A stretch of DNA of 64,000 nucleotides, taken from NCBI GenBank assembly GCA_902500125.1, contig GCA_902500125.1_4132.1; one strand, given 5' to 3'. The number at the start of each line of letters is the position of its first letter. The stretch's first letter is position 1. The notes under the pieces are model-generated. The model was not told the DNA's origin. It saw nothing but the letters and a program-made list of their open reading frames with translations, and did not search any database. Positions 29,348 through 54,441 of this stretch are shown piece after piece. The position numbers and the translations under genes are program-made. Source of the stretch: Escherichia coli. Lineage in GTDB: Bacteria; Pseudomonadota; Gammaproteobacteria; Enterobacterales; Enterobacteriaceae.

Positions 29348-29355
29348 GGTACTCT

Positions 29356-29535: not shown

Positions 29536-29543
29536 GGAATAAT

Positions 29544-29723: not shown

Positions 29724-29733
29724 AGGAAACCAA

Positions 29734-30571: not shown

Positions 30572-30572
30572 T

Positions 30573-30755
30573 ATGCACAAAGAATACTACACACAATTTC
30601 TCCCCAGCATTTTTGAACACTACGCCAGATACAAAGTCCCTATGGATAACGATTTGGCAGTACTGGGATTCAATAACTGCATAGAACGAAGTATAGAAAA
30701 TAGTAGTAGTTATGACCAGCTATATAACACTATCCTACTTATATTCAGGTACTAA
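30573..30755 (+). CDS. family A small protein (60 aa)
   Basis: TAAtATG junction; MHKEYYTQFLP...TILLIFRY. Confidence 0.65.
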   Translation: MHKEYYTQFLPSIFEHYARYKVPMDNDLAVLGFNNCIERSIENSSSYDQLYNTILLIFRY

Positions 30756-30756
30756 T

Positions 30757-30945
30757 ATGCATAAAGAATACTACACAAAATATTTCCCAATGTACCTCAG
30801 TACTAATCTATTAGATAAACCTCGCGGTATCAATGCACAAAACGATAAAGTGTACTTTACTATGTGCACTAAAGCATGTATACTAGATTTTGACAGCTAT
30901 CATCGAGTACTGTATCATACCCTGTACCTAGCTTTCGTATTCTAA
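30757..30945 (+). CDS. family A small protein (62 aa)
   Basis: ORF 30712 trimmed to ATG 30757 (TAAtATG); MHKEYYTKYFP... Confidence 0.65.
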   Translation: MHKEYYTKYFPMYLSTNLLDKPRGINAQNDKVYFTMCTKACILDFDSYHRVLYHTLYLAFVF

Positions 30946-30954
30946 AAGAACAAT

Positions 30955-31140
30955 ATGCATAAAGAATTCTACTTAAGCCATCTCGATCTAAACTCCCAAA
31001 TGCTTATACCACTAATCCCAATAGATATCAAGGATAAGAAAAATACCGAACAATTCATTTACCATACACAGTGTGCGATCACCCCAAATTACATTCCATA
31101 TGAATTGTACTACATTATCGCCCTAATATATAGGTACTAA
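30955..31140 (+). CDS. family A small protein (61 aa)
   Basis: MHKEFYLSHLD...IIALIYRY. Confidence 0.65.
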   Translation: MHKEFYLSHLDLNSQMLIPLIPIDIKDKKNTEQFIYHTQCAITPNYIPYELYYIIALIYRY

Positions 31141-31141
31141 T

Positions 31142-31327
31142 ATGCATAGAGAATACTACACACAATTTGTTAAAGGGAACTACAAACATGCCGTACCCAG
31201 AACCCCTTTAAATTCTCATGACCCAAGTACTATATTCTTGTTTAATGACGCAATACGTACAGTACTCAATACTAAAGATGAACAAGTGCAGTACGTATTC
31301 TTACTATTACTTATATACAGACACTAA
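31142..31327 (+). CDS. family A small protein (61 aa)
   Basis: TAAtATG; MHREYYTQFVK...LLLLIYRH. Confidence 0.65.
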   Translation: MHREYYTQFVKGNYKHAVPRTPLNSHDPSTIFLFNDAIRTVLNTKDEQVQYVFLLLLIYRH

Positions 31328-31332
31328 CTAAT

Positions 31333-31542
31333 ATGAATAAAGAACATAAAGAATACTACTCCAAACACCTCAGCCCCTCAGAACAAATGTTTCTAAGGAC
31401 TACTCCACCTTTAAGTACTAATACATTTTTCGGCAGAGTATGCTACAATAATTGTATTCAAATGACTTTAAACGCAAACGAAGATGGTAACAGTACTAAC
31501 CTGTACTCAGGTATCATAGGTATACTATTCCTGTATGAATAA
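31333..31542 (+). CDS. family A small protein (69 aa)
   Basis: MNKEHKEYYSKHLS...IGILFLYE. Confidence 0.65.
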   Translation: MNKEHKEYYSKHLSPSEQMFLRTTPPLSTNTFFGRVCYNNCIQMTLNANEDGNSTNLYSGIIGILFLYE

Positions 31543-31723
31543 TTACAAAGACTTCTATTTGAATACACTACCTACTGTACTTTCTCTAAGTGCTCAATGT
31601 AAAATCCCGCTGGATAATGCTTACGCCAGATATAGCTATTCCATAACTGTTAATCGATGTATAGAGAATCATTGCAGTACTAACCAGTACTATAACATAA
31701 TCCTACTTATATTCAGGTACTAA
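31535..31723 (+). CDS. family A small protein (62 aa)
   Basis: 8-nt overlap; MNNYKDFYLNTLP...IILLIFRY. Confidence 0.65.
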   Translation: MNNYKDFYLNTLPTVLSLSAQCKIPLDNAYARYSYSITVNRCIENHCSTNQYYNIILLIFRY

Positions 31724-31724
31724 T

Positions 31725-31907
31725 ATGAATAAAGAACATAAAGAATTCTATATACGAAAACTAACATTCGTCCCCGTAAGAATATATAAAGAATGCGACC
31801 CAAGATTATACCTATGGCACTTCAATGAGTGCATAAAAGATTCTATATACCATAAGAACTATAAAGAACAATTGTGCTCAGTACTAACACTAGTACTATC
31901 ATATTAA
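31725..31907 (+). CDS. family A small protein (60 aa)
   Basis: TAAtATG; MNKEHKEFYIRKLT...VLTLVLSY. Confidence 0.65.
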   Translation: MNKEHKEFYIRKLTFVPVRIYKECDPRLYLWHFNECIKDSIYHKNYKEQLCSVLTLVLSY

Positions 31908-31922
31908 TTAATAGAGAATACT

Positions 31923-32114
31923 ATGTATAAAAACTTCTATATAAGTAAACTAAAAGAAAATGAACAAGTATGGATTAGATCTATAATTCCACTGGCATTT
32001 AATAGATATGCATTTAACAGATGTACCGAGATTGCTATAGACCCTTATAATATTAAAGAGAATGTACAGTATAATCAGTACTACTATATCTTAATGCTTA
32101 TATATAGAAAGTAA
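31923..32114 (+). CDS. family A small protein (63 aa)
   Basis: AGAGAA upstream; MYKNFYISKLK...ILMLIYRK; last member. Confidence 0.65.
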   Translation: MYKNFYISKLKENEQVWIRSIIPLAFNRYAFNRCTEIAIDPYNIKENVQYNQYYYILMLIYRK

Positions 32115-32130
32115 TTAAACACATAGAGAC

Positions 32131-32222
32131 AGGGGAAGCTCCTAGTGAACAACCTTTATGTACAGGCGAATTGTTAAAATTCAGCCTGGACAAATGCGAT
32201 CACTAGGATTCTCCCCAGGCTA
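32131..32222. repeat. interleaved inverted repeats (A-B-A'-B')
   Basis: A GGGGAAGCTCCTAGTGA 32132-32148 / A' TCACTAGGATTCTCCCC 32200-32216; B AGCCTGG 32183-32189 / B' CCAGGCT 32215-32221. Confidence 0.45.
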
Positions 32223-32290
32223 AACCCCGTAATCATAGGTAGTCATAAGTAATCATATATAAACATTTATATGAGCACCGTAGAATCACA

Positions 32291-32388
32291 GAATGATTAT
32301 ATATGATTCAGTACTGATTAGTATAGACAAGATTGCTCAAGAATGCACGGAAATGTGTGTGAATGATTATATATGATTCAGTACTGAT
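32291..32388. repeat. 28-bp direct repeat pair
   Basis: GAATGATTATATATGATTCAGTACTGAT at 32291-32318 and 32361-32388. Confidence 0.8.
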
Positions 32389-32674
32389 ATGCCACTAAGT
32401 AGGCAGAGGAAGTCTGCCGTACTTTGTAGTTTCCAAGCTCCTTTTCCATTTTGCAAATTACATCAAATGTAATCAAAAGTAATCACACAATGATTAGTAC
32501 TGAATTATTACTTTCACCTTAATTACAATTACCCTTTTACCCTTCGGGGTAAAATTCCATTACCCCTTGAGGCTCCAGCAAAAAGTTGGTTAGTACTCCA
32601 TCCTAAATCTCGATCCTAAAAATTTTGGAGTACCTATGAAATAAAAGTTGGATCTTCGAAAGTTGAAATTTACG

Positions 32675-32704
32675 TTGGGACGTTTATGATTTGTGGGATA
32701 TAAT
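32675..32704 (+). promoter_or_regulatory. possible promoter (weak -35)
   Basis: TTGGGA 32675, 18 nt, TATAAT 32699; same layout as 6022-6051. Confidence 0.35.
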
Positions 32705-32762
32705 GATGTTTGTAGTCGGGTAGTTCTCAAGAATATCAGTACTGAATAATGAAAGAAAGCTA

Positions 32763-32790
32763 TTGACATTATGATTCAGTACTGTATAAT
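32763..32790 (+). promoter_or_regulatory. sigma70-like promoter with no downstream ORF
   Basis: TTGACA 32763-32768, 16 nt (CAGTACTG), TATAAT 32785-32790, GTTCTACATAGAGAG start region; no SD or ORF follows. Confidence 0.55.
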
Positions 32791-32976
32791 GTTCTACATA
32801 GAGAGATGAGTTGCCGCAAACAATTCATTCACTCTACCTCCTGTCGTGAGACAGTACTGAAAGGATAGTTCCTCCTATGGGTGGTACATCTTTTTATAAC
32901 CTCTTTTTTCGTAATATAAACAGTACTGATATTAACAGAATGGTGTCAGTACTGATTTTAATCTAAAGCATTATGC

Positions 32977-32995
32977 CACCAGCTTGTGCTGGTGG
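32977..32995. other. hairpin made of Chi and its complement
   Basis: CCACCAGC-ttgt-GCTGGTGG; + strand Chi at 32988-32995. Confidence 0.8.
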
Positions 32996-33192
32996 ATTCC
33001 CTCTAACAGTATTCAGTACTACATGATGGTCTTCATCCTCCTAGGGTAACATAGTGAGGGCTATGATGGCAGTACTGAATACTCCCTTTCAAAAGATAGA
33101 TCTATGGTATAGTACTGACGGATTTTGGGTGTAGTTACCCTGGGTGGATTTTGGACGTAGATATGTCTAGCCCTCCAGAAGTCTGGAAGTAA

Positions 33193-33328
33193 AGATGGCT
33201 ATCCATCTAGACGGCTAAACGGCTAGATTTCTGGATGGCTGGATGGCTAGATTTCTGGATGGCTGGATGGCTAGACGTTTGGACGGCTAAACGGCTAGAT
33301 GGTTACACGTCTGGAAGTATAGACGGCT
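33193..33328. repeat. iteron-like array of the octamer RRAYGGCT (10-11 copies), with 24-bp tandem unit x2
   Basis: AGATGGCT 33193, AGACGGCT 33209, AAACGGCT 33217, GGATGGCT 33233/33241/33257/33265, GGACGGCT 33281, AAACGGCT 33289, AGACGGCT 33321; flanked by GTCTGGAAGTA 33181 and 33309. Confidence 0.8.
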
Positions 33329-33489
33329 AAATCAAAATTTTATTTTGTTTTTTCCAATAGTTCCCCTACCGCGTGGGGATAGTTTCCCCGCAGTATCTGG
33401 AGTTAGATTTTTCTGAATCTGGAATCATTATCTTATAAACTGGGGGCAATGTCAACGGCCTGGACGGATATTTTTAAAAATTTTTTCAG

Positions 33490-33580
33490 TACTGAATTTT
33501 GGGCGTAACTATGCACCCGGTGGGCTTGAGTCTTTCTCGACTTGATGGAACTATTATACAGTACTGAAAAAATAAAGCAA
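33490..33580 (-). promoter_or_regulatory. U element: promoter + conserved transcribed core
   Basis: Minus strand TTGCTT (33580-33575), 16 nt, TATAAT (33558-33553), then ...ATCAAGTCGAGAAAGACTCAAGCCCACCGGGTGC (core 33525-33513). Confidence 0.45.
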
Positions 33581-33639
33581 TACCCTGGAAGCAAAAAAAT
33601 TTTAATTAATTTGCTTGCTATCCTGGGCCGGACTATGGT

Positions 33640-33702
33640 ACTATATTTCAGTACTGAGAAAGTGCGTTTGCCTGCTAGGGTGCGGGAGTGTATCCTTTTT
33701 TT
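33640..33702 (+). promoter_or_regulatory. U element, degenerate copy (core + T7)
   Basis: CTAGGGTGCGGGAGTGTATCC 33675-33695 followed by T7; no good promoter; converges on next element. Confidence 0.3.
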
Positions 33703-33711
33703 ATATCTTGA

Positions 33712-33796
33712 ATTTTGGGCGTAATTCCGCACCCCCTGGGGTTTCCGCTTTCTCGCGTCTATGTAGTAATTATACGCTTTTTCAGGATCAAGTCAA
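33712..33796 (-). promoter_or_regulatory. U element: promoter + conserved transcribed core
   Basis: Minus strand TTGACT (33796-33791), 16 nt, TATAAT (33774-33769), TACTACATAGACGCGAGAAAGCGGAAACCCCAGGGGGTGC. Confidence 0.45.
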
Positions 33797-33949
33797 TACC
33801 TAAAAACAAAATAATTGAAAATAATTTAACGCGTTTAAACGGCCCGTAAAGCCCTGGAATGATTAGAATGGTGCAAATGTATAGCTTAGGTGTATTAATG
33901 CGTTAGAATGCGTCTGAGGCCGTTTTACGGGGTATAGGGATGATTTAGT

Positions 33950-34115
33950 GGATTGATTCAGTACTGAATAATAGTACTCCTATATAGAAAGATAGTTCCC
34001 CTGGATTGATTCAGTACTGAATAATAGTACTCCTATATAGAAAGATAGTTCCCCTGGATGGTTGCAGTACTGAATGATAGTACTGAATAATAGTTCCCCT
34101 ATATAGAAAGAAAAC
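33950..34115. repeat. 53-bp tandem repeat, 2 exact copies + 1 diverged
   Basis: GGATTGATTCAGTACTGAATAATAGTACTCCTATATAGAAAGATAGTTCCCCT at 33950-34002 and 34003-34055; variant 34056-34115. Confidence 0.85.
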
Positions 34116-34142
34116 TATTTTAAAAGTATTTGTAGAAAGTAC

Positions 34143-34202
34143 TTGCAAACTAAGTTTAACGGCGTATAATGTTTTACATCGAGAGCGGGAACACTTCCCG
34201 CT
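34143..34202 (+). promoter_or_regulatory. PeSL-like cassette (early-type promoter + stem-loop)
   Basis: -35 TTGCAA 34143; -10 TATAAT 34165 + GTTTTACATC; hairpin 34184-34202; ATG 34226. Confidence 0.7.
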
Positions 34203-35624: not shown

Positions 35625-35704
35625 TTGACTTATTTTGTCAGTACTGGCATAATGTATTCATTGGCAGATAAGCCGTAGCCCATAGGGTGCGGGAGTGTAT
35701 CTAT
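35625..35704 (+). promoter_or_regulatory. U element: promoter + conserved transcribed core
   Basis: TTGACT 35625, 17 nt, CATAAT 35648; core GCCCATAGGGTGC 35678-35690; TGTATCTAT 35696-35704. Confidence 0.5.
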
Positions 35705-35734
35705 AGAAAAATTAGTTTAGTATAGTTACAATTG

Positions 35735-35797
35735 TGCACCCGGTGGGTTAGCTGTTGTCATGGGGTATATTATGCCAGTACTTGATAATGCTGTCAA
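35735..35797 (-). promoter_or_regulatory. U element, convergent partner of 35625-35704
   Basis: Minus strand TTGACA (35797-35792), 17 nt, CATAAT (35774-35769), core AACCCACCGGGTGC (35759-35746). Confidence 0.5.
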
Positions 35798-35843
35798 TAC
35801 TTTTTTTTAATATTCAGTACTGAAAACTATTTTTAAAAAGTAC

Positions 35844-35876: not shown

Positions 35877-35953
35877 ACATCAGGACGGGGAACGAAATAA
35901 GTAACTTCCCGTTAAGTAGCCCAGGAGTAAGGCACACGAAAAACTCCCCTGAT
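35877..35953 (+). ncRNA. conserved structured leader RNA (copy 1 of 3)
   Basis: Closing helix ATCAGG/CCTGAT; inner hairpin ACGGGGAA..TTCCCGT; motifs TAAGTAG, AGTAAG, ACGAAAAACT; near-identical at 46016-46090. Confidence 0.4.
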
Positions 35954-35961
35954 AAAATAGT

Positions 35962-37369: not shown

Positions 37370-37591
37370 ATGGCTAATATCACTACTCTTTCCCAACTGG
37401 AAGCACTGGTGAAATCTATGCGGGAACATGCCGACAAAATCGGCGTACAAGATCCAGCCGTTTGCTTCTGCGACGAATTGAATGATGATACCCTGGTAAT
37501 AGCAGAAGTCCAGGACGTTTCTAACTATTCATCGCGTTACACTGGCGGCGTAGCAAATAAAGGCGACTTCTGTTTATACCTTACAAAATAA
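37370..37591 (+). CDS. hypothetical protein (73 aa)
   Basis: Trimmed from 37340 to ATG 37370 after GAGGAA. Confidence 0.65.
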   Translation: MANITTLSQLEALVKSMREHADKIGVQDPAVCFCDELNDDTLVIAEVQDVSNYSSRYTGGVANKGDFCLYLTK

Positions 37592-37595
37592 CAAC

Positions 37596-37626
37596 GCGGG
37601 GAGATAATAACTCCCCGTTACTTTTT
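37596..37626 (+). terminator. rho-independent terminator
   Basis: CGGGGAG-ataataa-CTCCCCG then TTACTTTTT. Confidence 0.6.
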
Positions 37627-37639
37627 CAGTACTGAATCA

Positions 37640-37726
37640 TTTAATAGACGGATCTCGGCACCCGGTGGGTTAGTGACTGTTTCGTCTTGATGTAGTAATT
37701 ATGCCAGTACTGGATGCACTTGTCAA
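37640..37726 (-). promoter_or_regulatory. U element: promoter + conserved transcribed core
   Basis: Minus strand TTGACA (37726-37721), 17 nt, CATAAT (37703-37698), TACTACATCAAGACGAAACAGTCACTAACCCACCGGGTGC (core 37671-37658). Confidence 0.5.
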
Positions 37727-37759
37727 CAACTATTTTTCAAATACTTTTTATTAAAATAC

Positions 37760-38714: not shown

Positions 38715-38737
38715 AGCCCACCTGGTGGGCTTTTTTG
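38715..38737 (+). terminator. rho-independent terminator
   Basis: AGCCCACCTGGTGGGCT + T6. Confidence 0.75.
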
Positions 38738-38941: not shown

Positions 38942-39424
38942 ATGGCTAATGTAAAATCATTCATCAAAGCACTGGTAGCAAATGAAACTAACGTCGCGGC
39001 TGAGATCCTGGCTGAACTGGATAACGATACCATGAAAGCGGTACGCAATAATTTTAACATCGCGTACAGTACTGCGAAAGAACTACAAGCAAATAAAGCG
39101 GCAGAGATTGAAGCAGCGAAGGCGGCCCGTGAAGCAGAACTACAAGCAACAATTGAAAGTATCCAGGCGGCAGTAGTTGGGCTGGATCTGGAAGTAGTTA
39201 CCGAGATGGCACAAAAAGCCCTGGCGGTTAAGTACGGGGAAGATAAGCCGGAATCTAAGCCTAAAAAATGGATTCAAGAACGTGTAGCGGTAGTACTTGA
39301 TAACGGGGAAGAATATCTGATTCCGGTGCGTGGTAACTGCATTGCGGTAGTACTGGATGCTATCAAAGAAAGCGGATTGACTCGCGAGGAATGGATCGAA
39401 GCTCATCGCAAAGTTGAAGCATAA
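38942..39424 (+). CDS. hypothetical protein (160 aa), Ala/Glu-rich helical centre
   Basis: Trimmed from 38927 to ATG 38942 after GAGGA. Confidence 0.65.
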   Translation: MANVKSFIKALVANETNVAAEILAELDNDTMKAVRNNFNIAYSTAKELQANKAAEIEAAKAAREAELQATIESIQAAVVGLDLEVVTEMAQKALAVKYGEDKPESKPKKWIQERVAVVLDNGEEYLIPVRGNCIAVVLDAIKESGLTREEWIEAHRKVEA

Positions 39425-39445
39425 CAATTAAAGTACTGAATCATT

Positions 39446-39472
39446 AGCCCACTTATACAGTGGGCTTTTTTG
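39446..39472 (+). terminator. rho-independent terminator
   Basis: AGCCCACT-tatac-AGTGGGCT + T6. Confidence 0.75.
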
Positions 39473-39552
39473 TGTTTATCGTTTACCAGGCCACCAGCAC
39501 CGCCTAGAAACGATTCTAACGTATTAAACTGTTTATCTGATGCATTGCCCTA

Positions 39553-42312: not shown

Positions 42313-42453
42313 ATGAATCCTAACGGTTTAATTTACAGTACTCCTAAAACGAAAGCAGATAAAGCGAAAGCACGTAAAGCGAAAGTAAAGGAGTACATTA
42401 AGCAAGGCATGACGCGAAAGGCCGCACTACTCAGAGTAAAGGCTGAAAAATAA
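42313..42453 (+). CDS. small basic protein (46 aa)
   Basis: ATG directly after previous TAA; Lys-rich KADKAKARKAKVKEY. Confidence 0.4.
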   Translation: MNPNGLIYSTPKTKADKAKARKAKVKEYIKQGMTRKAALLRVKAEK

Positions 42454-42460
42454 TTGAAAA

Positions 42461-42548
42461 AAGGGTTGACTCCGGTCAGTCCCTTTGCTATTATATATAC
42501 ATACCAGCGATACACTGGCGGCCCATAGGGTGCACAAATGTATCTATT
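42461..42548 (+). promoter_or_regulatory. composite cassette: terminator hairpin carrying -35, plus U element core
   Basis: GGGTTGAC-tccg-GTCAGTCCC; TTGACT 42466, 17 nt, TATTAT 42489; core GCCCATAGGGTGC 42521-42533; TGTATCTATT 42539-42548. Confidence 0.55.
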
Positions 42549-42588
42549 ATATAAGTATTGAGTACTGAAAACTATTTTTAAAAAGTAC

Positions 42589-42648
42589 TTGCAAACTATC
42601 TCAATAAGCGTATAATGTTTTACATCGAAAGGGGAAACGGTTTCCCCT
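42589..42648 (+). promoter_or_regulatory. PeSL-like cassette
   Basis: TTGCAA 42589; TATAAT 42611; hairpin AGGGGAAA-cgg-TTTCCCCT 42630-42648. Confidence 0.7.
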
Positions 42649-42667
42649 GGTAATAAGGAAACAAATC

Positions 42668-43105: not shown

Positions 43106-43318
43106 ATGGCTAATATCTGCACTGTACTGAAAAATGCAAAACAAGTTTTATTTTCTGATCACGATCATTTAAACAAGGATATTACTGGCGTTCGGAATAT
43201 CAAAGATGTAAAAAGTGTTATGGGTATCTATTGCAATATGAAACGTGTTGGAACGTTCGGCGACAAAGTACTATACCAGGCAGGGGATTACAATTTTACA
43301 CTGACTATCATTAACTAA
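43106..43318 (+). CDS. hypothetical protein (70 aa)
   Basis: ORF track; GAGAGAGAAA SD region. Confidence 0.65.
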   Translation: MANICTVLKNAKQVLFSDHDHLNKDITGVRNIKDVKSVMGIYCNMKRVGTFGDKVLYQAGDYNFTLTIIN

Positions 43319-43337
43319 AAATATATTACCAGTACTA

Positions 43338-43365
43338 TTGACATAGTTTGATAGTACTGTATAAT
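43338..43365 (+). promoter_or_regulatory. class-2 promoter
   Basis: AGTACTATTGACA: TTGACA 43338, 16 nt, TATAAT 43360. Confidence 0.65.
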
Positions 43366-43409
43366 AAGTTTTATAAACAGTAGTTAACTTAACCTAAGAG
43401 AGAAATAAA

Positions 43410-43553: not shown

Positions 43554-43560
43554 TATTATA

Positions 43561-43587
43561 GCCCACTGGTCAACGCTGGTGGGCTTT
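43561..43587 (+). terminator. terminator hairpin containing Chi
   Basis: GCCCAC...GTGGGC + TTT; 3' arm includes GCTGGTGG 43575-43582. Confidence 0.5.
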
Positions 43588-43860: not shown

Positions 43861-43944
43861 TTGACAATATCATCCAGTACTGGCATAATACTTACATCAA
43901 GACGAGAACGTCACTAACCCATAGGGTGCACAAATGTAACTATA
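43861..43944 (+). promoter_or_regulatory. U element: promoter + conserved transcribed core
   Basis: TTGACA 43861, 17 nt, CATAAT 43884; ACTTACATCAAGACGAGAACGTCACTAACCCATAGGGTGC (core to 43930). Confidence 0.5.
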
Positions 43945-44942: not shown

Positions 44943-45131
44943 ATGGAAAACTTATCAAGTATTTTAGTACAAGATGATTTCGGTAATCCTGGAAGTGCTA
45001 TCATTGTTCGGGGCAATAAAGCAACGTTTGTTATTGCTGGTGGACCCGTACAGCGTAGCATTAAAAATAATGCTGTTACCATTAATAATGTACGCTATCG
45101 CTTAGATAAAGAATTAATTCATAAACTGTAA
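44943..45131 (+). CDS. hypothetical protein (62 aa)
   Basis: ORF track; AGAGGAAA SD. Confidence 0.6.
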   Translation: MENLSSILVQDDFGNPGSAIIVRGNKATFVIAGGPVQRSIKNNAVTINNVRYRLDKELIHKL

Positions 45132-45139
45132 AAAAGTAC

Positions 45140-45199
45140 TGGATAATAGATTATAGTACTGTATAATAGTTTACATGAAGGGGAGAAATGATTCTCCCC
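45140..45199 (+). promoter_or_regulatory. PeSL-like cassette (degenerate -35)
   Basis: TGGATA 45140; TATAAT 45162; hairpin 45180-45199. Confidence 0.55.
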
Positions 45200-45515: not shown

Positions 45516-45689
45516 ATGGTCCAGGTAGAATTAACAGTACTGAAAGATCTGTTTTATCGGATTGGTACTACTGGCGAATATCCGAAGGGTGATAATGCAA
45601 AACTTTACGTATCACTCGACTTATGGCAACGCGAACAATTAGCAACGGCCTGGCGTAAAGGCAAAGCAGATAGCGAGGTGAAAGCATGA
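45516..45689 (+). CDS. small protein (57 aa)
   Basis: Trimmed from 45414 to ATG 45516 after AGAGGAAA. Confidence 0.55.
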   Translation: MVQVELTVLKDLFYRIGTTGEYPKGDNAKLYVSLDLWQREQLATAWRKGKADSEVKA

Positions 45690-45835
45690 AAGAATTCTTA
45701 TTTGAAGTAGTGTTTCAAGGTGTCGGTAGTAACCAACTGATTCGCTCAAGTGGTTATAATGTTAACCAGGCATGGAATAACATTAAACAAATGTACCCGA
45801 ACGCTATCACCTATCGCAACCCGAAAGAAGTTTAA
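45686..45835 (+). CDS. small protein (49 aa)
   Basis: Not in ORF track; ATGA-coupled; MKEFLFEVVFQGVGSNQ... Confidence 0.45.
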   Translation: MKEFLFEVVFQGVGSNQLIRSSGYNVNQAWNNIKQMYPNAITYRNPKEV

Positions 45836-45848
45836 AAATAATTGAAAA

Positions 45849-45930
45849 AGGGATTGACTCCGGTCAGTCCCTTTGCTATTATATACGCATAGAAACAAAT
45901 TAGCCCACCGGGTGCATAAATGTATCTATT
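45849..45930 (+). promoter_or_regulatory. composite cassette: terminator hairpin carrying -35, plus U element core
   Basis: AGGGATTGAC-tccg-GTCAGTCCCT; TTGACT 45854, TATTAT 45877; core GCCCACCGGGTGC 45903-45915; TGTATCTATT 45921-45930; Chi 45935-45942 follows. Confidence 0.55.
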
Positions 45931-45982
45931 GTTTGCTGGTGGCTAGTACTATCAAGTACTGAAAACTATTTTTAAAAAGTAC

Positions 45983-46010
45983 TTGCATTGTAATTAGAAT
46001 CAAGTATAAT
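45983..46010 (+). promoter_or_regulatory. early-type promoter (upstream of tandem pair)
   Basis: TTGCAT 45983; TATAAT 46005. Confidence 0.6.
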
Positions 46011-46015: not shown

Positions 46016-46090
46016 ACATCAGGACGGGGAACGAAACAAGTAACCCCGTTAAGTAGTCCAGGAGTAAGACATACGAAAAACTCCCCTGAT
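46016..46090 (+). ncRNA. conserved structured leader RNA (copy 2 of 3)
   Basis: Near-identical to 35877-35953; inner stem ACGGGG/CCCCGT. Confidence 0.4.
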
Positions 46091-46098
46091 AAAATAGT

Positions 46099-46159: not shown

Positions 46160-46435
46160 ATGCGGATTCTACTGACAGCTAACGAAATCGAACAAGTACT
46201 GACTACTAACCTGGAACAATGGAAACGTGATGCAGATATCCAGGCGGTTCAATGGCTTAACGATAAGTTAACGCCGGATGACTTAAGCAAGATTGTAGAT
46301 CCTCAATTCTACGAAGATATTCACGACACGGCTTTAAGCGTCGAGGATGTACTTGATAAGCATTACATTAATACCGATTTACAGGTTTACGGGCGTAAAA
46401 ACTTTATCACTATTCACGACATTTACAATACTTAA
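46160..46435 (+). CDS. hypothetical protein (91 aa)
   Basis: ORF track; AAGGAAA SD. Confidence 0.65.
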   Translation: MRILLTANEIEQVLTTNLEQWKRDADIQAVQWLNDKLTPDDLSKIVDPQFYEDIHDTALSVEDVLDKHYINTDLQVYGRKNFITIHDIYNT

Positions 46436-46438
46436 GTA

Positions 46439-46500
46439 TTGACAAAGTATCTTAGTACTGTATAATAGTTTACATCAAGGCGGGGAAATGGTTCCCCTCC
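46439..46500 (+). promoter_or_regulatory. PeSL-like cassette
   Basis: TTGACA 46439; TATAAT 46461; hairpin 46479-46500. Confidence 0.7.
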
Positions 46501-46522
46501 TAACAAAGAGAGAGAAATAAAA

Positions 46523-46846
46523 ATGGCTATGATCCTTACCCAGAAAGTGGAATTGAAAATTGTAACCTCCTTTGACATTAAAGTTAATCGCTGGACTGAT
46601 CGGAACGGCAATACTTACCACTCTTGCTACGTGTCTGCGTTAATTGGCGACCGCTGGGAAGACCTGGGACACGAAACCTTTACATACGGTTACGGTACGC
46701 AAGGCGAATACACTGGTTTGGAGATCATTAAAGAAACCGTTATAGGTTTCAACCCGAAAGAAAAAGTTATGCACCGCATCGAAAAAGAGATTAACAAAGA
46801 AATAACAGTTCGCTACTACGATGTAAAACGTAAGAAAGACATGTAA
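46523..46846 (+). CDS. hypothetical protein (107 aa), paralog of 40543..40887
   Basis: ORF track; shared motifs (see 40543). Confidence 0.7.
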   Translation: MAMILTQKVELKIVTSFDIKVNRWTDRNGNTYHSCYVSALIGDRWEDLGHETFTYGYGTQGEYTGLEIIKETVIGFNPKEKVMHRIEKEINKEITVRYYDVKRKKDM

Positions 46847-47983: not shown

Positions 47984-48226
47984 ATGATTACTTTAGAAAA
48001 ACGTATCAAAGAAACTACATCGCTGGTGGAATTGTTAACAGTACTCAAATGTAAAACAACACCATTCAGCACGCCGGACTTTATTAATATGGTTGATGTT
48101 AATGGTCGCTATCGTATCACGGTCGAACAAGGAGCGGCGAAAGTATTCAGTACTAAAAACACGAAGGAAGTGATCCACGCCGTTAATGTTAAAAAAGTAG
48201 TTGCCATTGATAGTAAAGTACTGTAA
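47984..48226 (+). CDS. hypothetical protein (80 aa)
   Basis: ORF track; GGGGAAAA upstream; contains Chi at 48022. Confidence 0.6.
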   Translation: MITLEKRIKETTSLVELLTVLKCKTTPFSTPDFINMVDVNGRYRITVEQGAAKVFSTKNTKEVIHAVNVKKVVAIDSKVL

Positions 48227-48257
48227 TATAGTTTCATTAACTCAAGGAGAACATGCA

Positions 48258-48842
48258 ATGCGTAATTATACTAAATTCATCCGTACACTGTCAGAAATGG
48301 AAACCAACAAAGAGATCCTTTCAGCTTGTCGGTTAGCTGGCCTGGAGATCATCGGTGCTGGTTCTTCCCGTATAGTTTTCGCTTTAAATGATCGGTTAGT
48401 GATTAAGGTCGCGAATTGTGATGCGGGTGTAGAACAAAATGAAACTGAATGTAAGGTATGGAATTTTTTAGACTATGACCGCCCTCAGTTGAAACAGTAC
48501 TTTGCAAAGGTGCATATGCATTTATGCGATCCTGATAATATGTTTATCGTTATGGATCGGTTGAGTACTGCAAGCAAAGGTAGTGTGAAGCACGTAAACG
48601 CGTGCAATGAATTAAAGTACAATATTAAACGTAATGCAATCGAACGCCAGCACCGCTTTGCTGATGCACTACAACACGTCGATGATACATTATCAACACT
48701 AACGATAAGAGATATCAGAAAACAGAATATCGGCCAGGATCGTAATGGCCTTATTAAAGTACTTGATTACGGTTTAACCTGCAATATCTGGAATCAGTAC
48801 TATAAAAAGCGTGATGTGGCAGCAAGTAAGGTAACACGATAA
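48258..48842 (+). CDS. protein kinase-like fold protein (194 aa)
   Basis: Trimmed to ATG 48258 after AAGGAG; G-loop IIGAGSSRIVF, LVIKVA lysine, IRDIRKQNIG catalytic-loop-like, VLDYGL (DFG-like). Confidence 0.55.
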   Translation: MRNYTKFIRTLSEMETNKEILSACRLAGLEIIGAGSSRIVFALNDRLVIKVANCDAGVEQNETECKVWNFLDYDRPQLKQYFAKVHMHLCDPDNMFIVMDRLSTASKGSVKHVNACNELKYNIKRNAIERQHRFADALQHVDDTLSTLTIRDIRKQNIGQDRNGLIKVLDYGLTCNIWNQYYKKRDVAASKVTR

Positions 48843-48855
48843 AAAAGATTAAAAA

Positions 48856-48942
48856 AGGGATTGACTCCGGTCAGTCCCTTTGCTATTATATATCCATTGA
48901 GAGATAACTCACTGACCCATAGGGTGCGGAAGTGTATCTATT
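48856..48942 (+). promoter_or_regulatory. composite cassette: terminator hairpin carrying -35, plus U element core
   Basis: TTGACT 48861, TATTAT 48884; core CCCATAGGGTGC 48916-48927; TGTATCTATT 48933-48942. Confidence 0.55.
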
Positions 48943-48983: not shown

Positions 48984-49044
48984 TTGCATTGTACTTAGAA
49001 TCAAGTATAATGTTTTATATCGAGAGGGGGAAATGGTTCTCCCT
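48984..49044 (+). promoter_or_regulatory. PeSL-like cassette
   Basis: TTGCAT 48984; TATAAT 49006; hairpin 49025-49044. Confidence 0.7.
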
Positions 49045-49065: not shown

Positions 49066-49287
49066 ATGACTACAATGACTTGCATTTACGCTTCCAATCG
49101 TCTGAATGATGCGGCCTTTAATGTTGATTCAGAATATCAATGTTATCGGGATGAAAATAAAAAAGTTTTTGTAGTTGATAATAATGGTTTCCATATTGAA
49201 TTACAATCCGGCTTCACTGGTGTTGATGGTAAATCAGTATGGGGCGTACAGGATGATAAAGGTACATATCATTTTAAACGTAATTAA
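49066..49287 (+). CDS. hypothetical protein (73 aa)
   Basis: Trimmed from 49033 to ATG 49066 after AAGGAA. Confidence 0.65.
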   Translation: MTTMTCIYASNRLNDAAFNVDSEYQCYRDENKKVFVVDNNGFHIELQSGFTGVDGKSVWGVQDDKGTYHFKRN

Positions 49288-49291
49288 GTAT

Positions 49292-49350
49292 TTGACAAAG
49301 TATCTTAGTACTGTATAATAGTTTACATCAAGGGGAGAATAGTTCTCCCC
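49292..49350 (+). promoter_or_regulatory. PeSL-like cassette
   Basis: TTGACA 49292; TATAAT 49314; hairpin GGGGAGAA-tag-TTCTCCCC 49332-49350. Confidence 0.7.
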
Positions 49351-49371
49351 GATACTAAAAGGAATAAAATC

Positions 49372-49776
49372 ATGACTACTACTAATCTTGCTCGGAATAT
49401 CGCCAACGATAAAAATCATGCTGCAATGGTCGCTGGTTACATTGAAGCTATGCAATTCAGTACTGTACATAATGATAACGGCGATTACCTGGAAGATTAT
49501 GAGTTATCTGATGAAGCACGTCAAGCGGCGGTGATTGCATGTTCTCGCTTCATTGAGAAACACGGTAATGATCTGGAAGTAGTTCGCGGTATGTTTATTG
49601 ATTACGGTTATGAGCAAGCTGGTCATGATCTGTTCCTTACCCGCGAAGGTCACGGAACTGGTTTTTGGGATCGTGGTTTAGGTCACTATGGCGATGTATT
49701 CACGAAGTACTGCGAAGAAATCAACGTTTGCGATCCCTATGTAGGCGATGATAACTTAATCTATATGGGCGAATAA
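49372..49776 (+). CDS. hypothetical protein (134 aa)
   Basis: ORF track; AAGGAA SD; motif GHDLFLTREGHGTGFWDRG; function not recognised. Confidence 0.7.
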   Translation: MTTTNLARNIANDKNHAAMVAGYIEAMQFSTVHNDNGDYLEDYELSDEARQAAVIACSRFIEKHGNDLEVVRGMFIDYGYEQAGHDLFLTREGHGTGFWDRGLGHYGDVFTKYCEEINVCDPYVGDDNLIYMGE

Positions 49777-49782
49777 AAGTAT

Positions 49783-49841
49783 TTGACAAAGTATATCAGT
49801 ACTGTATAATAGTTTACATCAAGGGGAGAATAGTTCTCCCC
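49783..49841 (+). promoter_or_regulatory. PeSL-like cassette
   Basis: TTGACA 49783; TATAAT 49805; hairpin 49823-49841 (same as 49332). Confidence 0.7.
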
Positions 49842-49863
49842 AATACTAAAAGGAAACAAAATT

Positions 49864-51391: not shown

Positions 51392-51592
51392 ATGTCTATC
51401 GCTATCGCCCTGGTTGAAGTACTGAAAGAAGCTAAAGCCAACCAGATCGACGTAAAGATCCAGGAACTACAAAACGGCTTAATCGGCTGTACTTGTACCG
51501 CTGGTGGAGCGGCAGACTATCGAGAACACGAATCACTCGAATCACTGGTTCGGTATCTTACCATGATCGTTGATGATTGGAGAATCATCTAA
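51392..51592 (+). CDS. hypothetical protein (66 aa)
   Basis: ORF track; GGAG SD; contains Chi at 51500. Confidence 0.65.
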   Translation: MSIAIALVEVLKEAKANQIDVKIQELQNGLIGCTCTAGGAADYREHESLESLVRYLTMIVDDWRII

Positions 51593-51608
51593 CAAAAAAG
51601 AATAAAAA

Positions 51609-51687
51609 AGGGATTGACTCCGGTCAGTCCCTTTGCTATTATATACGCATAGACAAAAACTAGCCCACAGGGTGCATAGGTGTATCC
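51609..51687 (+). promoter_or_regulatory. composite cassette: terminator hairpin carrying -35, plus U element core
   Basis: TTGACT 51614, TATTAT 51637; core GCCCACAGGGTGC 51663-51675; TGTATCC 51681; Chi 51722-51729 follows. Confidence 0.55.
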
Positions 51688-51754
51688 AAAATATATAGTT
51701 AATAACGGTGAGTAACTATCTGCTGGTGGAACTAAAACTATTAATAAAAAAGTA

Positions 51755-51816
51755 TTGACAAAGTATATCAGTACTGCAATAATGTATCTCGTAGGGCGGC
51801 AATGGTGCGACGGCCC
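51755..51816 (+). promoter_or_regulatory. promoter + weak stem-loop (degenerate PeSL)
   Basis: TTGACA 51755; -10 CAATAAT near 51777; GC-rich imperfect hairpin 51794-51816. Confidence 0.45.
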
Positions 51817-53187: not shown

Positions 53188-53385
53188 ATGCGTATTTTAA
53201 CTCAAGCAGAACATCACGAAAGACTTATCAATAACATGGCATATATCCTACATATGTCACATATCCGTGGTATTGCATATAAGCGTGAATTGGTTATGGC
53301 ACTATTCATTGGAACTAACTTTCAGGAAAGGTATGTCAAGGATTGGATTTCATATTTAATTGAAGATATAACGGGTAAACTATGA
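53188..53385 (+). CDS. family B small protein (65 aa)
   Basis: GGAG SD; motif FIGTNFQERYVKDWISYLIEDI. Confidence 0.65.
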   Translation: MRILTQAEHHERLINNMAYILHMSHIRGIAYKRELVMALFIGTNFQERYVKDWISYLIEDITGKL

Positions 53386-53590
53386 AAATTATCACACAAT
53401 TTCAACTATATAATCTTATGATCGAATATAGAAAGAATATATATATATACCAGATGAGTTATCTAGGGATGAAAAAAAGTTTATTCTATCGGAGTGGTGG
53501 ATGATGGCTGGACTGGGAACCAACTTCCAAGAAAGTTTTGTTAATGATTGGATTTTACATTTAATAAAAGATATAAAGAGTAAACAATGA
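53382..53590 (+). pseudogene. family B member disrupted at an (AT)7 run
   Basis: ATG 53382 (ATGA-coupled) gives MKIITQFQLYNLMIEYRKNIYIY. The conserved C-half (..SEWWMMAGLGTNFQESFVNDWILHLIKDI) is in another frame. The switch lies in ATATATATATATAT 53436-53449. Confidence 0.55.
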
Positions 53591-53796
53591 AAACTATAAC
53601 ACGAACCCAATCATTAGGTCTTATCTTGAAATACATGGACTTAATGTTGGATATCAGCAAAGACCTTCCTAAAACTGAAATCCAAGTTGCAAGAGCAGAG
53701 ATCCGCATGTTGGCTGTACTGAACACAAACCATCAGGAAGATTATGTTGAAGAATGGATTCGATTTTTAATAGAAGATATAAAGAGTAAATTATGA
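53587..53796 (+). CDS. family B small protein (69 aa)
   Basis: ATGA overlap; VLNTNHQEDYVEEWIRFLIEDI. Confidence 0.65.
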   Translation: MKTITRTQSLGLILKYMDLMLDISKDLPKTEIQVARAEIRMLAVLNTNHQEDYVEEWIRFLIEDIKSKL

Positions 53797-54008
53797 TTAT
53801 TATAGAAAACTCATATCAATATACTGAACGCATCGCTGCCAGACAACTTGAAATCCTCATAATATACGAAGAGACTTCTGATTTAAACTTAGCCGAGGTA
53901 TTGGAAAATGATATACTATTGGGTGCATTCTTAGGAACAGACTATCAGAAGTATTATGAGGAAAAGTATTTGTCATCTCTTGAGAAATATATCAGGAGCA
54001 AATTATGA
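53793..54008 (+). CDS. family B small protein (71 aa)
   Basis: ATGA overlap; FLGTDYQKYYEEKYL. Confidence 0.65.
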   Translation: MIIIENSYQYTERIAARQLEILIIYEETSDLNLAEVLENDILLGAFLGTDYQKYYEEKYLSSLEKYIRSKL

Positions 54009-54217
54009 TTTTTTTAACACCAGAAGAATATAAGAAACGTTTCAATTCCGCACAGGGTGAAATCTTACTTATATACCTTTCAAATGCAGACCTTAACTTA
54101 TCAAGGGTATTAGAAAAAGATTTACTTATGGGTGCATTCCTTGATACAGACTTTCAGGTGTATTATGTAGGGGAATACTTAATTGCACTTCAGAATTATA
54201 TCAGGAGTAAACTATGA
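54005..54217 (+). CDS. family B small protein (70 aa)
   Basis: ATGA overlap; FLDTDFQVYYVGEYL. Confidence 0.65.
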   Translation: MIFLTPEEYKKRFNSAQGEILLIYLSNADLNLSRVLEKDLLMGAFLDTDFQVYYVGEYLIALQNYIRSKL

Positions 54218-54441
54218 AACATTTAAGTAATTCCGAGAAGAATAAAATTATCATTGCTGCAATAAACAAATATTTTACACTTCCTCACAAAGAAGGTTTA
54301 TGTATAAGAGAACACAGGATAAACACCACCGATATACGCATGATGGCTGTACTGGGGACGAACTTCCAGGAAGAGTATGTTATTGCACACATAGTTGCAC
54401 TCAAGAATTACATTATGGACAAATGTAATGAACATCATTAA
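54214..54441 (+). CDS. family B small protein (75 aa)
   Basis: ATGA overlap; VLGTNFQEEYVIAHI. Confidence 0.65.
   Translation: MKHLSNSEKNKIIIAAINKYFTLPHKEGLCIREHRINTTDIRMMAVLGTNFQEEYVIAHIVALKNYIMDKCNEHH

Follow-up and report, generated by a model that had tools for sequence, protein, structure and literature searches.

The locus described here raised the question of what is transcribed from a promoter whose −35 box lies inside the stem of a terminator-like hairpin. It is part of a 64,000-nucleotide (nt) stretch of DNA (contig GCA_902500125.1_4132.1 of GenBank assembly GCA_902500125.1, deposited as Escherichia coli), which is called the window below. A sequence-only reading of the window had described an intergenic module of about 190 bp, present four times at about 3-kb intervals, and had proposed that the hairpin in this module ends transcription while the −35 box in its stem belongs to the next promoter. 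Our analysis indicated that the module probably consists of three regulatory cassettes in a row, in a part of a RaK2/121Q-type jumbo phage genome that the host polymerase would transcribe early. Specifically, a hairpin and a σ70 promoter overlap in the first cassette, the embedded promoter precedes a conserved block without an open reading frame (ORF), which we refer to as the U unit, and a second, ordinary promoter precedes the next gene.

The window was that of an Asteriusvirus-like jumbo coliphage of the 350-kb class (relatives 121Q and PBECO4). A megablast search with positions 41.5 to 46.5 kb matched 84 phage records, the top matches, which included JP4, TH47, 121Q, PBECO4, and fEgEco12, being coliphages of the 350-kb class at 89 to 96% identity; 121Q is classified as an Asteriusvirus. 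The G+C content of the window was 35.6%. The modules were located in a plus-strand array of very small hypothetical genes (36 to 64 kb; dozens of 40 to 140 amino acids [aa]), nearly all of which had a near-consensus σ70 promoter, a 5′ stem-loop, and a ribosome-binding site (RBS) of their own (repeat families D1 to D6). The corresponding region of fEgEco12 was found 3 to 21 kb from the left genome end. This array looks like an early takeover region that would be transcribed by the host polymerase, and a similar region has been proposed for the relative CBB (PMC5259590).

Overlap of a hairpin and a promoter in four modules

Copies of the module were present at all four reported sites, with the GGG(A)TTGAC starts at 42461, 45849, 48856, and 51609, and they aligned in register as one repeat family (D7). 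All of them shared an A-tract, the hairpin GGGAUUGAC-UCCG-GUCAGUCCC-UUU, and a TTGACT hexamer followed 17 nt later by TGcTATTAT. TTGACT, the 17-nt spacer, and TATTAT were identical in the four modules, and a promoter scan placed the TG of an extended −10 element ahead of TATTAT in each. The pattern AAAAAGGGATTGAC had 11 matches in the window with up to two mismatches, compared to 0.75 expected from shuffled sequences, and TTGACTYCGGTCAG had 7 matches, compared to 0.02 expected. Because these sub-patterns far exceeded their shuffle counts, we concluded that the four copies did not arise by chance.

The copies differed in how far their similarity extended. The 45-nt stretch AAAAAGGGATTGACTCCGGTCAGTCCCTTTGCTATTATATA was identical in copies 2 to 4, and one A was missing from copy 1, which reads AAAAAAGGG-TTGAC; the missing A leaves a bulge in the stem, and the predicted fold energy was −14.4 kcal/mol, compared to −19.5 kcal/mol. 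A 33-nt AT-rich block was found in exact form at 42561 and 45955 alone. It carried a 1-nt insertion near 48954 and had diverged in copy 4, in which a 24-nt insert preceded it; an extra copy of the block, without a hairpin, was located at 35816. The tightly shared length was therefore about 95 nt in all four copies, and the 190 nt that had been reported for all of them was common to three only.

The hairpins had several features of intrinsic terminators. Each was located 3 to 12 nt 3′ of a TAA stop codon, was flagged in a terminator scan, and had a 9- to 12-bp stem that covered the −35 box and the spacer. The fold energies (−14.4 kcal/mol for the bulged copy 1 to −19.5 kcal/mol) were typical of terminators. 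The stem was followed by UUU and then GCUAUUAU, which gave 5 U in the 8 nt past the stem under the rule used in the scan. The second promoter, which precedes the next gene, began about 120 nt past the embedded one, and none of the four modules had a terminator 3′ of its U unit.

Simpler versions of the element had been reported at 3280, 6521, 7283, 9129, and 14041, and all five were present, with TTCG, TAAG, or TTAG loops. In each of them, a −10 hexamer was found 16 to 18 nt past TTGACT, and an RBS and ATG followed directly.

To compare the element among related jumbo phages, we gathered from IMG/VR, GenBank, and metagenome loci all hairpins with a stem of 7 bp or more and a 5′ arm ending in TTGAC. 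This gave 100 distinct hairpins, 90 of which had a −10-like hexamer at a distance of 16 to 18 nt; at five control spacings, such a hexamer was found in 2, 21, 5, 3, and 1 of the 100. A TGn motif was present in 58 of the 90 hairpin-promoters, and the loop was UUCG or UCCG in 43 of the 100 hairpins. The inner stem was fixed by the −35 box, with TTGAC paired with GTCAG, GTTAG, or GTCAA, and the outer stem showed compensatory changes (GGGA/TCCC, GGGG/CCCC, GTGG/CCAT, GTAC/GTAC, GGAG/CTCC, and AGAGG/CCTCT). The outer-stem covariation, together with the position of the −10 hexamer, indicated that both the pairing and the promoter geometry are under selection.

The same 30 bp had been annotated in two different ways: the GAP32 record lists the orthologous element as a rho-independent terminator (17290-17313), and the fHe-Yen9-03 record lists −35 and −10 signals on it (13380-13403). 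Each of the two annotations is probably correct, and in neither record is the U unit between the 30-bp element and the next promoter annotated. Thus, the proposal of a terminator-like hairpin with a −35 box in its stem was supported by the position past a stop codon, the stability, the −10 geometry, and the covariation. The wording "next promoter" was not supported if it is taken to mean the promoter of the next gene: the promoter to which this −35 box belongs precedes a U unit, and the next gene has its own.

A second type of ORF-less unit was seen next to module 2. Here, an ordinary promoter was followed by a 76-nt sequence and then by a further promoter before the gene. There were two copies in the window (46017-46092 and about 35880-35955). 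The 46-kb copy folded as a closed two-hairpin structure (−21 kcal/mol, z = −3.2), and the 76-nt stretch may be another small RNA.

The U unit and its contexts

The four modules and five other CCCAYMGGGTGC sites aligned as one family, and the exact core CCCAYMGGGTGC had 9 matches in the window, compared to 0.25 expected. The promoter part of the shared plan consisted of a −35 ATTGAC(A/T), 17 nt, a −10 box, and CAT at the start site; the transcribed part consisted of a variable segment, (A/G)CCCAYMGGGTGC, five mostly purine bases, and TGTATCTAT. The TTGAC of the module hairpins aligned with the −35 box of the U promoters that lacked a hairpin. In the five nonmodule copies, the promoter spacer was this phage's usual CAGTACTGG; the four modules had the terminator's 3′ arm in that position. 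At the RNA level, the features were a small, covarying 5′ hairpin (P1), CUAR-CCCAYMGGGUGC, and then UGUAUCUAU.

We searched for further copies with a core-pattern scan of IMG/VR and with an nhmmer profile that was built from a hand-structured alignment. The nhmmer search found 11 U units in the window, all of them between 33.5 and 51.7 kb, and 124 distinct units were obtained across related loci. They occurred in Asteriusvirus, Alcyoneusvirus (RaK2 and K64-1), Mimasvirus (GAP32), CBB, Eneladusvirus (Yersinia phages), and Erwinia jumbo phages, at 4 to 13 places per genome, and the hosts were Escherichia, Salmonella, Klebsiella, Cronobacter, Pectobacterium, Yersinia, and Erwinia. Units were also found in 22 metagenome loci, which look like the same phage clade. 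No RNA was annotated at the U sites in the phage records that we inspected. A bacterial or host origin of U was rejected, as a 26-nt degenerate pattern had no matches in 185,579 bacterial and archaeal species genomes.

The U unit was tightly coupled to a promoter. A σ70 match of at least 10 of 12 positions, with the −10 element ending 27 or 31 to 35 nt before GGGTGC, preceded 111 of the 124 units; the rate was 4.6% in random windows, and such a match was found on the opposite side of U in 5 of 124 units. Overall, 111 to 122 of the 124 units had a promoter ahead of them. P1, where present, lies between the start site and the core, and the two distance classes matched its absence and presence. 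It was found in 46 of the 47 long forms, and in a test on 63 units it was present in 48, compared to 14.6 (maximum, 24) after shuffling. Twenty distinct stems were seen, and five of the six pairs showed double changes in a structure-fitted alignment, which is biased toward pairing, so that the shuffle test is the fair control.

The core itself formed a CCC/GGG hairpin (P2) with a loop of 3 or 4 nt and was otherwise invariant, except for two variants with compensatory CCU/AGG stems. The core is thus conserved chiefly as sequence. The block CUAR-CCC-loop-GGG-UGC...UGUAUCUAU, which we regard as the candidate recognition block, was near-invariant from phages of Escherichia to those of Erwinia and Yersinia.

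Several other identities for U were considered. No conserved ORF or start codon was found in the 124-unit comparison, and a mini-ORF or leader peptide (GGGUG as Shine-Dalgarno sequence, followed by NUG UAU CUA) was rejected because NUG was absent from about 40% of the units (GUCCGUC, GUCUGUC, or CACGUC instead). Rfam 15 had no match at gathering scores in the whole window and none on U at an E value of ≤5 between 33.0 and 52.5 kb, and ARAGORN found no tRNA or tmRNA. A long-range pairing or pseudoknot of the 5′ part of U (P1 loop or 5′ end) with UGUAUCUAU was also rejected, as cognate pairs were no better than noncognate pairs. Look-alikes that came to mind (tmRNA PK1, CsrA sites, RfaH ops sites, CRISPR repeats and RNA anti-CRISPR mimics, and type III antitoxin repeats) agreed with U in only a few bases when they were compared informally.

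To describe what lies downstream of U, we examined 66 units by crude rules, under which some of the 66 fell into no class. At least 10 of the 66 had a GC hairpin and U-run 36 to 66 nt farther on, which predicted RNAs of about 100 nt. Sixteen were members of convergent pairs, in which 45, 56, or 63 nt separated the two cores. Each transcript of such a pair would end in a long hairpin that includes its partner's antisense sequence; for the pair at 35.68/35.74 kb, the predicted energy was −42.7 kcal/mol. Another 16 had a further promoter behind them, as in the four modules; the module order of stop codon, hairpin-promoter, U, second promoter, and gene was kept in GAP32 and in Yersinia phage fHe-Yen9-03. 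Because U was independent of the content and orientation of what lay downstream, we read it as an autonomous small RNA domain and not as a leader or antiterminator of particular genes.

Proposed roles of the modules and competing explanations

In the explanation that we favor, the first cassette would be a composite of the PeSL (promoter-early stem-loop) type, a kind of cassette known from T4-type phages. Its hairpin, which resembles an intrinsic terminator (A-tract, 9- to 12-bp stem, UNCG tetraloop, and U-rich tail) and is placed just past a stop codon, would end nested early transcripts from many upstream promoters. The same DNA would be a strong σ70 promoter, with its −35 TTGACT reaching from the 5′ arm into the loop and with TGcTATTAT after a further 17 nt, and the host holoenzyme would start 6 to 8 nt past TATTAT and make U. 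In the second cassette, then, the embedded promoter would transcribe U and would not transcribe the next gene directly. The predicted U RNA has a 5′ AU, the variable hairpin P1, CUAR, the near-invariant CCC-loop-GGG-UGC, a purine-rich pentamer, and UGUAUCUAU; it would be an autonomous small noncoding RNA domain made immediately after infection, and its partner would most likely be a protein or RNA that recognizes the invariant block. As the four modules have no terminator past U, the U transcript would continue there into the next cassette and form a long leader. The third cassette (ordinary promoter, 5′ stem-loop, and RBS) would express the next gene; in module 2, it would first express the other ORF-less structured stretch.

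We favored a trans-acting or protein-binding small RNA because the most conserved part, a 36-nt block, was invariant across phages of different hosts and because U also occurred as a stand-alone unit. A more specific version, to which we gave somewhat less than an even chance, is that U is an undescribed, multicopy family of early small RNAs (about 60 to 110 nt), made by the host polymerase and specific to the RaK2/121Q/GAP32/CBB clade. During takeover, these RNAs would sequester a conserved protein or RNA of the host or the phage, working in trans as a sponge or decoy. Each module would in that case be a U gene with its promoter fused into the preceding PeSL terminator.

Several points weigh against this explanation. 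Termination, initiation, and a discrete U RNA are all predictions from sequence. The U-tract is weak in the four modules (UUUGCUAUUAU): it begins with three U, and these could form pairs with the A-tract. The simple copies have four to six U. As no U in the four modules has its own terminator, U may be only a leader there. P2 is nearly invariant and so offers little covariation, and this invariance arises partly from the way in which the copies were collected. Single-sequence folds of U were no more stable than those of shuffled sequences (z = −0.8 and −0.9), and no cognate pairing of its 5′ and 3′ parts was detected (duplex energy of −5.2 kcal/mol, compared to −5.0 kcal/mol for noncognate duplexes; permutation P = 0.18). 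Finally, P1 could be simply the generic stabilizing hairpin found at the 5′ end of every early transcript of this phage, in which case its covariation would indicate transcription and not a function specific to U.

The spacing of the modules was examined in related genomes. In the window, the intervals were 3,388, 3,007, and 2,753 bp, in agreement with the reported positions. The 121Q orthologues (144925, 148619, 151917, and 153841) were 3,694, 3,298, and 1,924 bp apart, and the orthologous intervals in fEgEco12 were 3,998, 3,269, and 2,752 bp. The suggestion of regular 3-kb transcription units was not borne out, given this range of 1.9 to 4.0 kb, the additional plus-strand terminator-like hairpins at 43560 and 47360, and the many internal promoters in each segment. 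The modules appear to bound multipromoter, co-terminal transcription units without a periodic rule.

The differences in interval arose from insertions or deletions of single genes at ordinary promoter cassettes, and the alignment ends often overlapped, which indicated that the inserted gene was flanked by duplicated cassettes. This is the pattern described in the PeSL papers (PMC2839356, PMC4122927). The gene at 49372-49776, for example, was absent from 121Q and was located between direct copies (49275-49369 and 49766-49860) of a 95-nt cassette of promoter and stem-loop; by its sequence, this is a classic case of a PeSL-type cassette gained or lost. Similar indels relative to fEgEco12 were seen at about 43318-43378, 45131-45155, and 46422-46529. 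The four hairpin modules themselves were syntenic and stable in the three genomes compared (the window, 121Q, and fEgEco12). Segmental duplication was rejected: in an all-against-all BLASTP comparison, a single weak pair was the only paralogy between the 3-kb segments, and the genes behind modules 1 and 4 had only about 23% identity. Because the genes between modules were not paralogous, the repeats were taken to be cassettes and not the remains of a segmental duplication. The hairpin of module 1 differed from its 121Q orthologue (GUGG/CCAU, UUCG loop) and resembled modules 2 to 4 of its own genome, which suggests gene conversion among the module copies.

Octamers of the E. coli Chi sequence (GCTGGTGG) were abundant in this part of the phage. 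There were 16 in the window, compared to 0.63 expected, and nearly all of those between 39.5 and 51.7 kb were on the plus strand. The sites included 45935, 51722, an inverted pair at 32976/32988, 43575, 44085, 45036, 48022, 49921, and 51500. In related phages, Chi was found inside the spacer of the U promoter (TTGACAA-GCTGGTGG-AGTACTGGCATAAT), and 20 of the 124 U units had Chi within about 110 nt, roughly twice the local density. The enrichment may relate to RecBCD protection or to cassette recombination.

The idea that termination and re-initiation of the next gene's mRNA are coupled in a 45-bp element, and that the modules divide the region into regular units of about 3 kb, agreed with part of these data, and we nevertheless consider it unlikely. 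The overlap of hairpin and promoter is real and conserved. Between 42 and 52 kb, no other plus-strand terminator-like site is as common as the modules, which thus bound multipromoter, co-terminal units, and with no terminator past U, transcription from the embedded promoter should extend into the next gene. However, that gene is preceded by a promoter, 5′ stem-loop, and RBS of its own, about 120 nt farther on, and the embedded promoter is directly followed by U, a conserved block without an ORF that in other places is a stand-alone unit or is directed away from genes. The spacing in relatives, which cassette indels alter, and the extra hairpins at 43560 and 47360 do not fit this idea, and the economy of the element is not unusual, as it is that of the PeSL design. 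The behavior of U also bears on whether it acts in cis on its own polymerase, either as a put/nut-like processive antiterminator or as a hairpin-stabilized promoter-proximal pause. We regard such a role as distinctly improbable, and the same applies to its corollary that polymerases from module promoters would differ at later terminators from those that started at ordinary promoters. A cis-acting U would account for the strict distance to a σ70 promoter, the two small hairpins right at the 5′ end, and the regular location of U next to terminators, just downstream of them or facing them. The consensus pause is G−11 G−10...Y−1 G+1, and the GG at the end of P2 followed by Y-G ten nt later fits this consensus; counted from the first G of GGGUGC, T at +12 is conserved in about 90% of units and G at +13 in about 60%. 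The A-rich, GNRA-like loops of P1 recall boxB. Yet many U units meet their own terminator within 40 to 70 nt with no gene behind them or face another U (at least 26 of the 66 units examined end in one of these two ways without a downstream gene), G+1 is absent from about 40% of units, and P1 varies freely in sequence, unlike put and boxB, in which both stem and loop are specific. A phage factor resembling N, Q, or RfaH did not turn up, although no search was aimed at one.

The indels described above lend some weight to a different explanation, in which the repeats persist mainly as recombination substrates or selfish cassettes (PeSL-mediated shuffling) and U is a DNA site, for example, for a recombination or nicking protein. 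Indels among the window phage, 121Q, and fEgEco12 occurred at repeated promoter cassettes with overlapping alignment ends (e.g., 49372-49776), module 1 matched modules 2 to 4 as gene conversion predicts, Chi was enriched inside or next to 20 of the 124 U units, and PeSL mini-circles have been documented in RB49 and phi1 (PMC2839356). The stability of the four modules in the three genomes argues against this explanation, as do the strict orientation of U behind a promoter at a fixed distance and the retention of P1 pairing while its sequence changes, which points to the RNA level. We rate it as quite improbable, and a role in recombination could be compatible with the three-cassette explanation. 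We gave the smallest chance, close to negligible, to the U block being a middle-mode promoter for a phage-modified or phage-encoded sigma factor (CCCACA-17 nt-TATAAT), which would make the arrangement one of tandem early and middle promoters. Such tandem arrangements are usual in T4, and the 124-unit consensus CCCACAGGGTGCgGAAaTGTATCTATAAT has a TATAAT-like hexamer 17 nt past CCCACA; moreover, CBB-type phages encode a sigma-like protein (PMC5259590). But the TATAAT-like part was only 50 to 70% conserved and was absent from many distant copies (CCGTCTGT, CTGTCC, or ACGTCC), stand-alone and convergent units would give RNAs of only 30 to 50 nt, and the fixed coupling to an upstream σ70 promoter would be left without an explanation.

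Returning to U as a candidate small RNA, the significance of the modules lies in what the embedded promoter would drive. The overlap of terminator and promoter alone is textbook T4-type architecture and adds only a new host clade for PeSLs. The block behind it is free of ORFs, locked to a promoter, present in at least six jumbo phage genera at 4 to 13 or more copies per genome, and outside Rfam. Should U prove to be a functional RNA, it would be a candidate immediate-early regulator or decoy of high abundance in a group of phages with an almost entirely undescribed early program. There may also be a practical rule for annotation, as many "intergenic gaps" of 150 to 250 bp in these genomes would hold a transcription unit.

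Surrounding features and relation to known systems

The coordinates of the modules, the simple copies, and other U units in the window are listed in Table 1.

Table 1. Predicted elements of the modules, simple hairpin-promoters, and further U units in the window
Feature	Position	Strand	Details
Module 1 A-tract and terminator-like hairpin	42457-42486	+	AAAAAAGGG-UUGAC-UCCG-GUCAG-UCCCUUU; 3 nt past TAA of ORF 42313-42453; −14.4 kcal/mol
Module 1 embedded σ70 promoter	42466-42494	+	TTGACT-17-TATTAT, TGc extended −10; predicted start about 42501
Module 1 U unit	42501-42547	+	P1 CCAG (42504-07)/CUGG (42515-18); core CCCAUAGGGUGC 42522-42533; 3′ block ..AUGUAUCUAU ending 42547
Module 1 second, ordinary promoter	42589-42616	+	TTGCAA-16-TATAAT; AT-rich block 42561-42593 ahead; then 5′ stem-loop GGGGAAACGGUUUCCCC, RBS, ATG 42668
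Module 2 A-tract and hairpin	45845-45874	+	12 bp, UCCG loop; 9 nt past TAA of ORF 45686-45835; −19.5 kcal/mol
Module 2 embedded promoter	45854-45882	+	TTGACT-17-TGcTATTAT; predicted start about 45889
Module 2 U unit, short form without P1	45889-45929	+	Core 45904-45915; Chi octamer 45935-45942
Module 2 second promoter	45983-46010	+	TTGCAT-16-TATAAT; 76-nt structured ORF-less stretch 46017-46092 behind; third promoter 46099 for gene starting 46160
Module 3 A-tract and hairpin	48851-48881	+	8 nt past TAA of ORF 48201-48842
Module 3 embedded promoter	48861-48889	+	TTGACT-17-TGcTATTAT; predicted start about 48896
Module 3 U unit	48896-48941	+	P1 UGAG/CUCA; core 48916-48927
Module 3 second promoter	48984-49011	+	TTGCAT-16-TATAAT; then 5′ stem-loop, RBS, gene (ATG about 49066)
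Module 4 A-tract and hairpin	51604-51634	+	11 nt past TAA of ORF 51392-51592
Module 4 embedded promoter	51614-51642	+	TTGACT-17-TGcTATTAT; predicted start about 51649
Module 4 U unit, short form	51649-51689	+	Core 51664-51675; Chi 51722-51729
Module 4 second promoter, other type	51755-51783	+	TTGACA-17-AATAAT with TG; then stem-loop, RBS, ATG 51837
Simple PeSL-type hairpin	3277-3300	+	UUCG loop, TTGACT-18-TATAAT; RBS and ATG directly after
Simple hairpin-promoter	6521-6538	+	UAAG loop, −10 TATCAT; then RBS, gene
Simple hairpin-promoter	7281-7302	+	UUCG loop, TTGACT-16-TATAAT; then gene
Simple hairpin-promoter	9125-9150	+	UUCG loop, −10 TATGAT; 11 nt past ORF 7859-9118; then RBS, gene
Simple hairpin-promoter	14037-14064	+	UUAG loop, TTGACT-17-TGcTATTAT; then RBS, gene; close to the VH7D element after rIIB
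U unit, ordinary promoter, without hairpin-promoter	43861-43943	+	TTGACA-17-CATAAT; P1 GACG/CGUC; core 43918-43929
U unit, plus member of convergent pair	35626-35711	+	Core 35679-35690
U unit, minus member of convergent pair	35718-35806	−	Core 35736-35747; cores 45 nt apart; joint hairpin −42.7 kcal/mol in either transcript
Stand-alone antisense U unit among plus-strand genes	37590-37740	−	TTGACA-17-CATAAT; P1 GAC/GUC; core 37658-37669; ends at bidirectional terminator 37596-37618, no gene behind
U unit in noncoding hub	33494-33590	−	Core 33513-33524
Convergent pair, variant U units	33600-33790		Plus core CCUGCUAGGGUGC (hidden Markov model match 33677-33703); minus core CCCCAGGGGGUGC (match 33709-33734)

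Other repeats were found around these elements. The palindromic octamer CAGTACTG occurred 65 times across the window, compared to 0.8 expected (e.g., 32309, 32737, 33487, 35639, 43875, and 49797). It was located in promoter spacers just 5′ of the −10 element (CAGTACTGGCATAAT), directly after U cores, and in dense noncoding clusters, and it may be a protein-binding site or a promoter element. Terminator-like hairpins of the form AGCCCAC...GTGGGCT were found at 38715-38731, 39446-39466, and 43560-43585; their 5′ arm resembled the start of the U core (AGCCCAC-AGGGTGC), and the 3′ arm of the hairpin at 43560 contained a Chi octamer. A weak Rfam Trp-leader match (E = 0.048) at 39409-39473 overlapped one of these hairpins and is probably just the terminator.

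About 2 kb without a plausible ORF was located at 32100-34200, and its equivalent in 121Q (135194-137161) was unannotated. This stretch contained iteron-like direct repeats (GGATGGCTAGA/GGACGGCTAAACGGCTAGA; 33170-33330), three copies of a repeat of about 53 nt (33950-34110), about 14 CAGTACTG sites, the inverted Chi pair, and three U units, and it could be a replication origin or regulatory hub. Three gene arrays were also seen. One (18067-27816) consisted of nine paralogous minus-strand genes of 270 to 410 aa, whose 121Q counterparts carry the annotation RCC1-like "regulator of chromosome condensation" protein. A second (53188-59075) comprised about 25 paralogous ORFs in tandem, each about 70 to 90 aa long, with overlapping stop and start codons, and a smaller array of a similar kind, with ORFs of about 60 to 70 aa, was located at 28144-32114.

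Among known systems, the put RNAs of HK022 and the nut RNAs of lambda are antiterminators. Like them, U has two small hairpins directly 3′ of early promoters, and its P1 loops are purine-rich. It differs in that it faces terminators with no gene behind them or occurs in convergent pairs, in that the sequence of P1 is free, and in that the sequences are not similar. The OOP RNA of lambda is a small phage RNA with its own promoter and intrinsic terminator. A stand-alone U unit is alike in its predicted transcript of about 100 nt, from a strong σ70 promoter to a GC hairpin and U-run, and some units are antisense to genes (37590-37740). In contrast to OOP, U is multicopy (4 to 13 or more per genome), carries an invariant internal block instead of a target-specific antisense sequence, and has no Rfam family. 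Hairpins with C(UUCG)G or other UNCG tetraloops in T4 intercistronic regions were reportedly described by Tuerk and colleagues in 1988. The hairpins in the window share the C(UUCG)G or C(UCCG)G closure, the intergenic location in a T4-related phage, and the predicted association with transcript ends, but their stem is constrained to TTGAC/GTCAG and doubles as a −35 box.

The closest relatives were the PeSLs. Arbiol et al. (2010) described those of RB49 and phi1 as small cassettes in which a strong σ70-like promoter is combined with a stem-loop that terminates effectively. They defined five subclasses according to where the stem-loop lies, among them one with the stem-loop between −35 and −10 and one with it overlapping the −35 box, and demonstrated both promoter and terminator activity with lacZ fusions (PMC2839356). 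Comeau et al. (2014) extended PeSLs to PST/T4 and nt-1/KVP40, with nt-1/KVP40 stems of the form A3-4 G3-loop-C3 T3-4 (PMC4122927). The coupling that had been called unusually economical is thus the design of a described PeSL subclass (PMC2839356, PMC4122927), and its activities have been tested in the PeSLs of RB49 and phi1. In a BLAST search with the consensus module, the first 30 nt matched Schizotequatrovirus phages (VH7D and other large Vibrio phages) and Aeromonas phage 65, with 93% identity over 30 nt, and inspection of the VH7D sequence after rIIB showed a near-identical element, AAAAAAGGGTTGACTTCGGTCAGCCCTTTTGTGTATTAT, followed by an RBS and ATG.

The likeness to PeSLs extended to several features. 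T4-type PeSLs and modules have in common an AT-rich tract after the upstream stop codon and a near-consensus σ70 promoter that overlaps a stem-loop, a terminator or attenuator in PeSLs and a predicted terminator here, in one element of 50 to 100 bp. The module stems match the nt-1/KVP40 stem consensus, and in both cases there are many repeats amid small early genes of unknown function, with indels between close relatives at the cassettes. The five simple copies lead, as PeSLs do, straight to a Shine-Dalgarno sequence and ATG. The four modules have the stop codon and A-tract, but their promoter leads to an ORF-less U unit and a second promoter before the gene, and the phage is of the RaK2/121Q type. 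We found no report of PeSLs or of a U-like RNA in RaK2-type phages in the literature that we searched. Taken together, these comparisons suggest that the terminator-promoter design is of a known kind in a new host clade and that the new point would be the fusion of a PeSL promoter to an undescribed, widely conserved noncoding unit.

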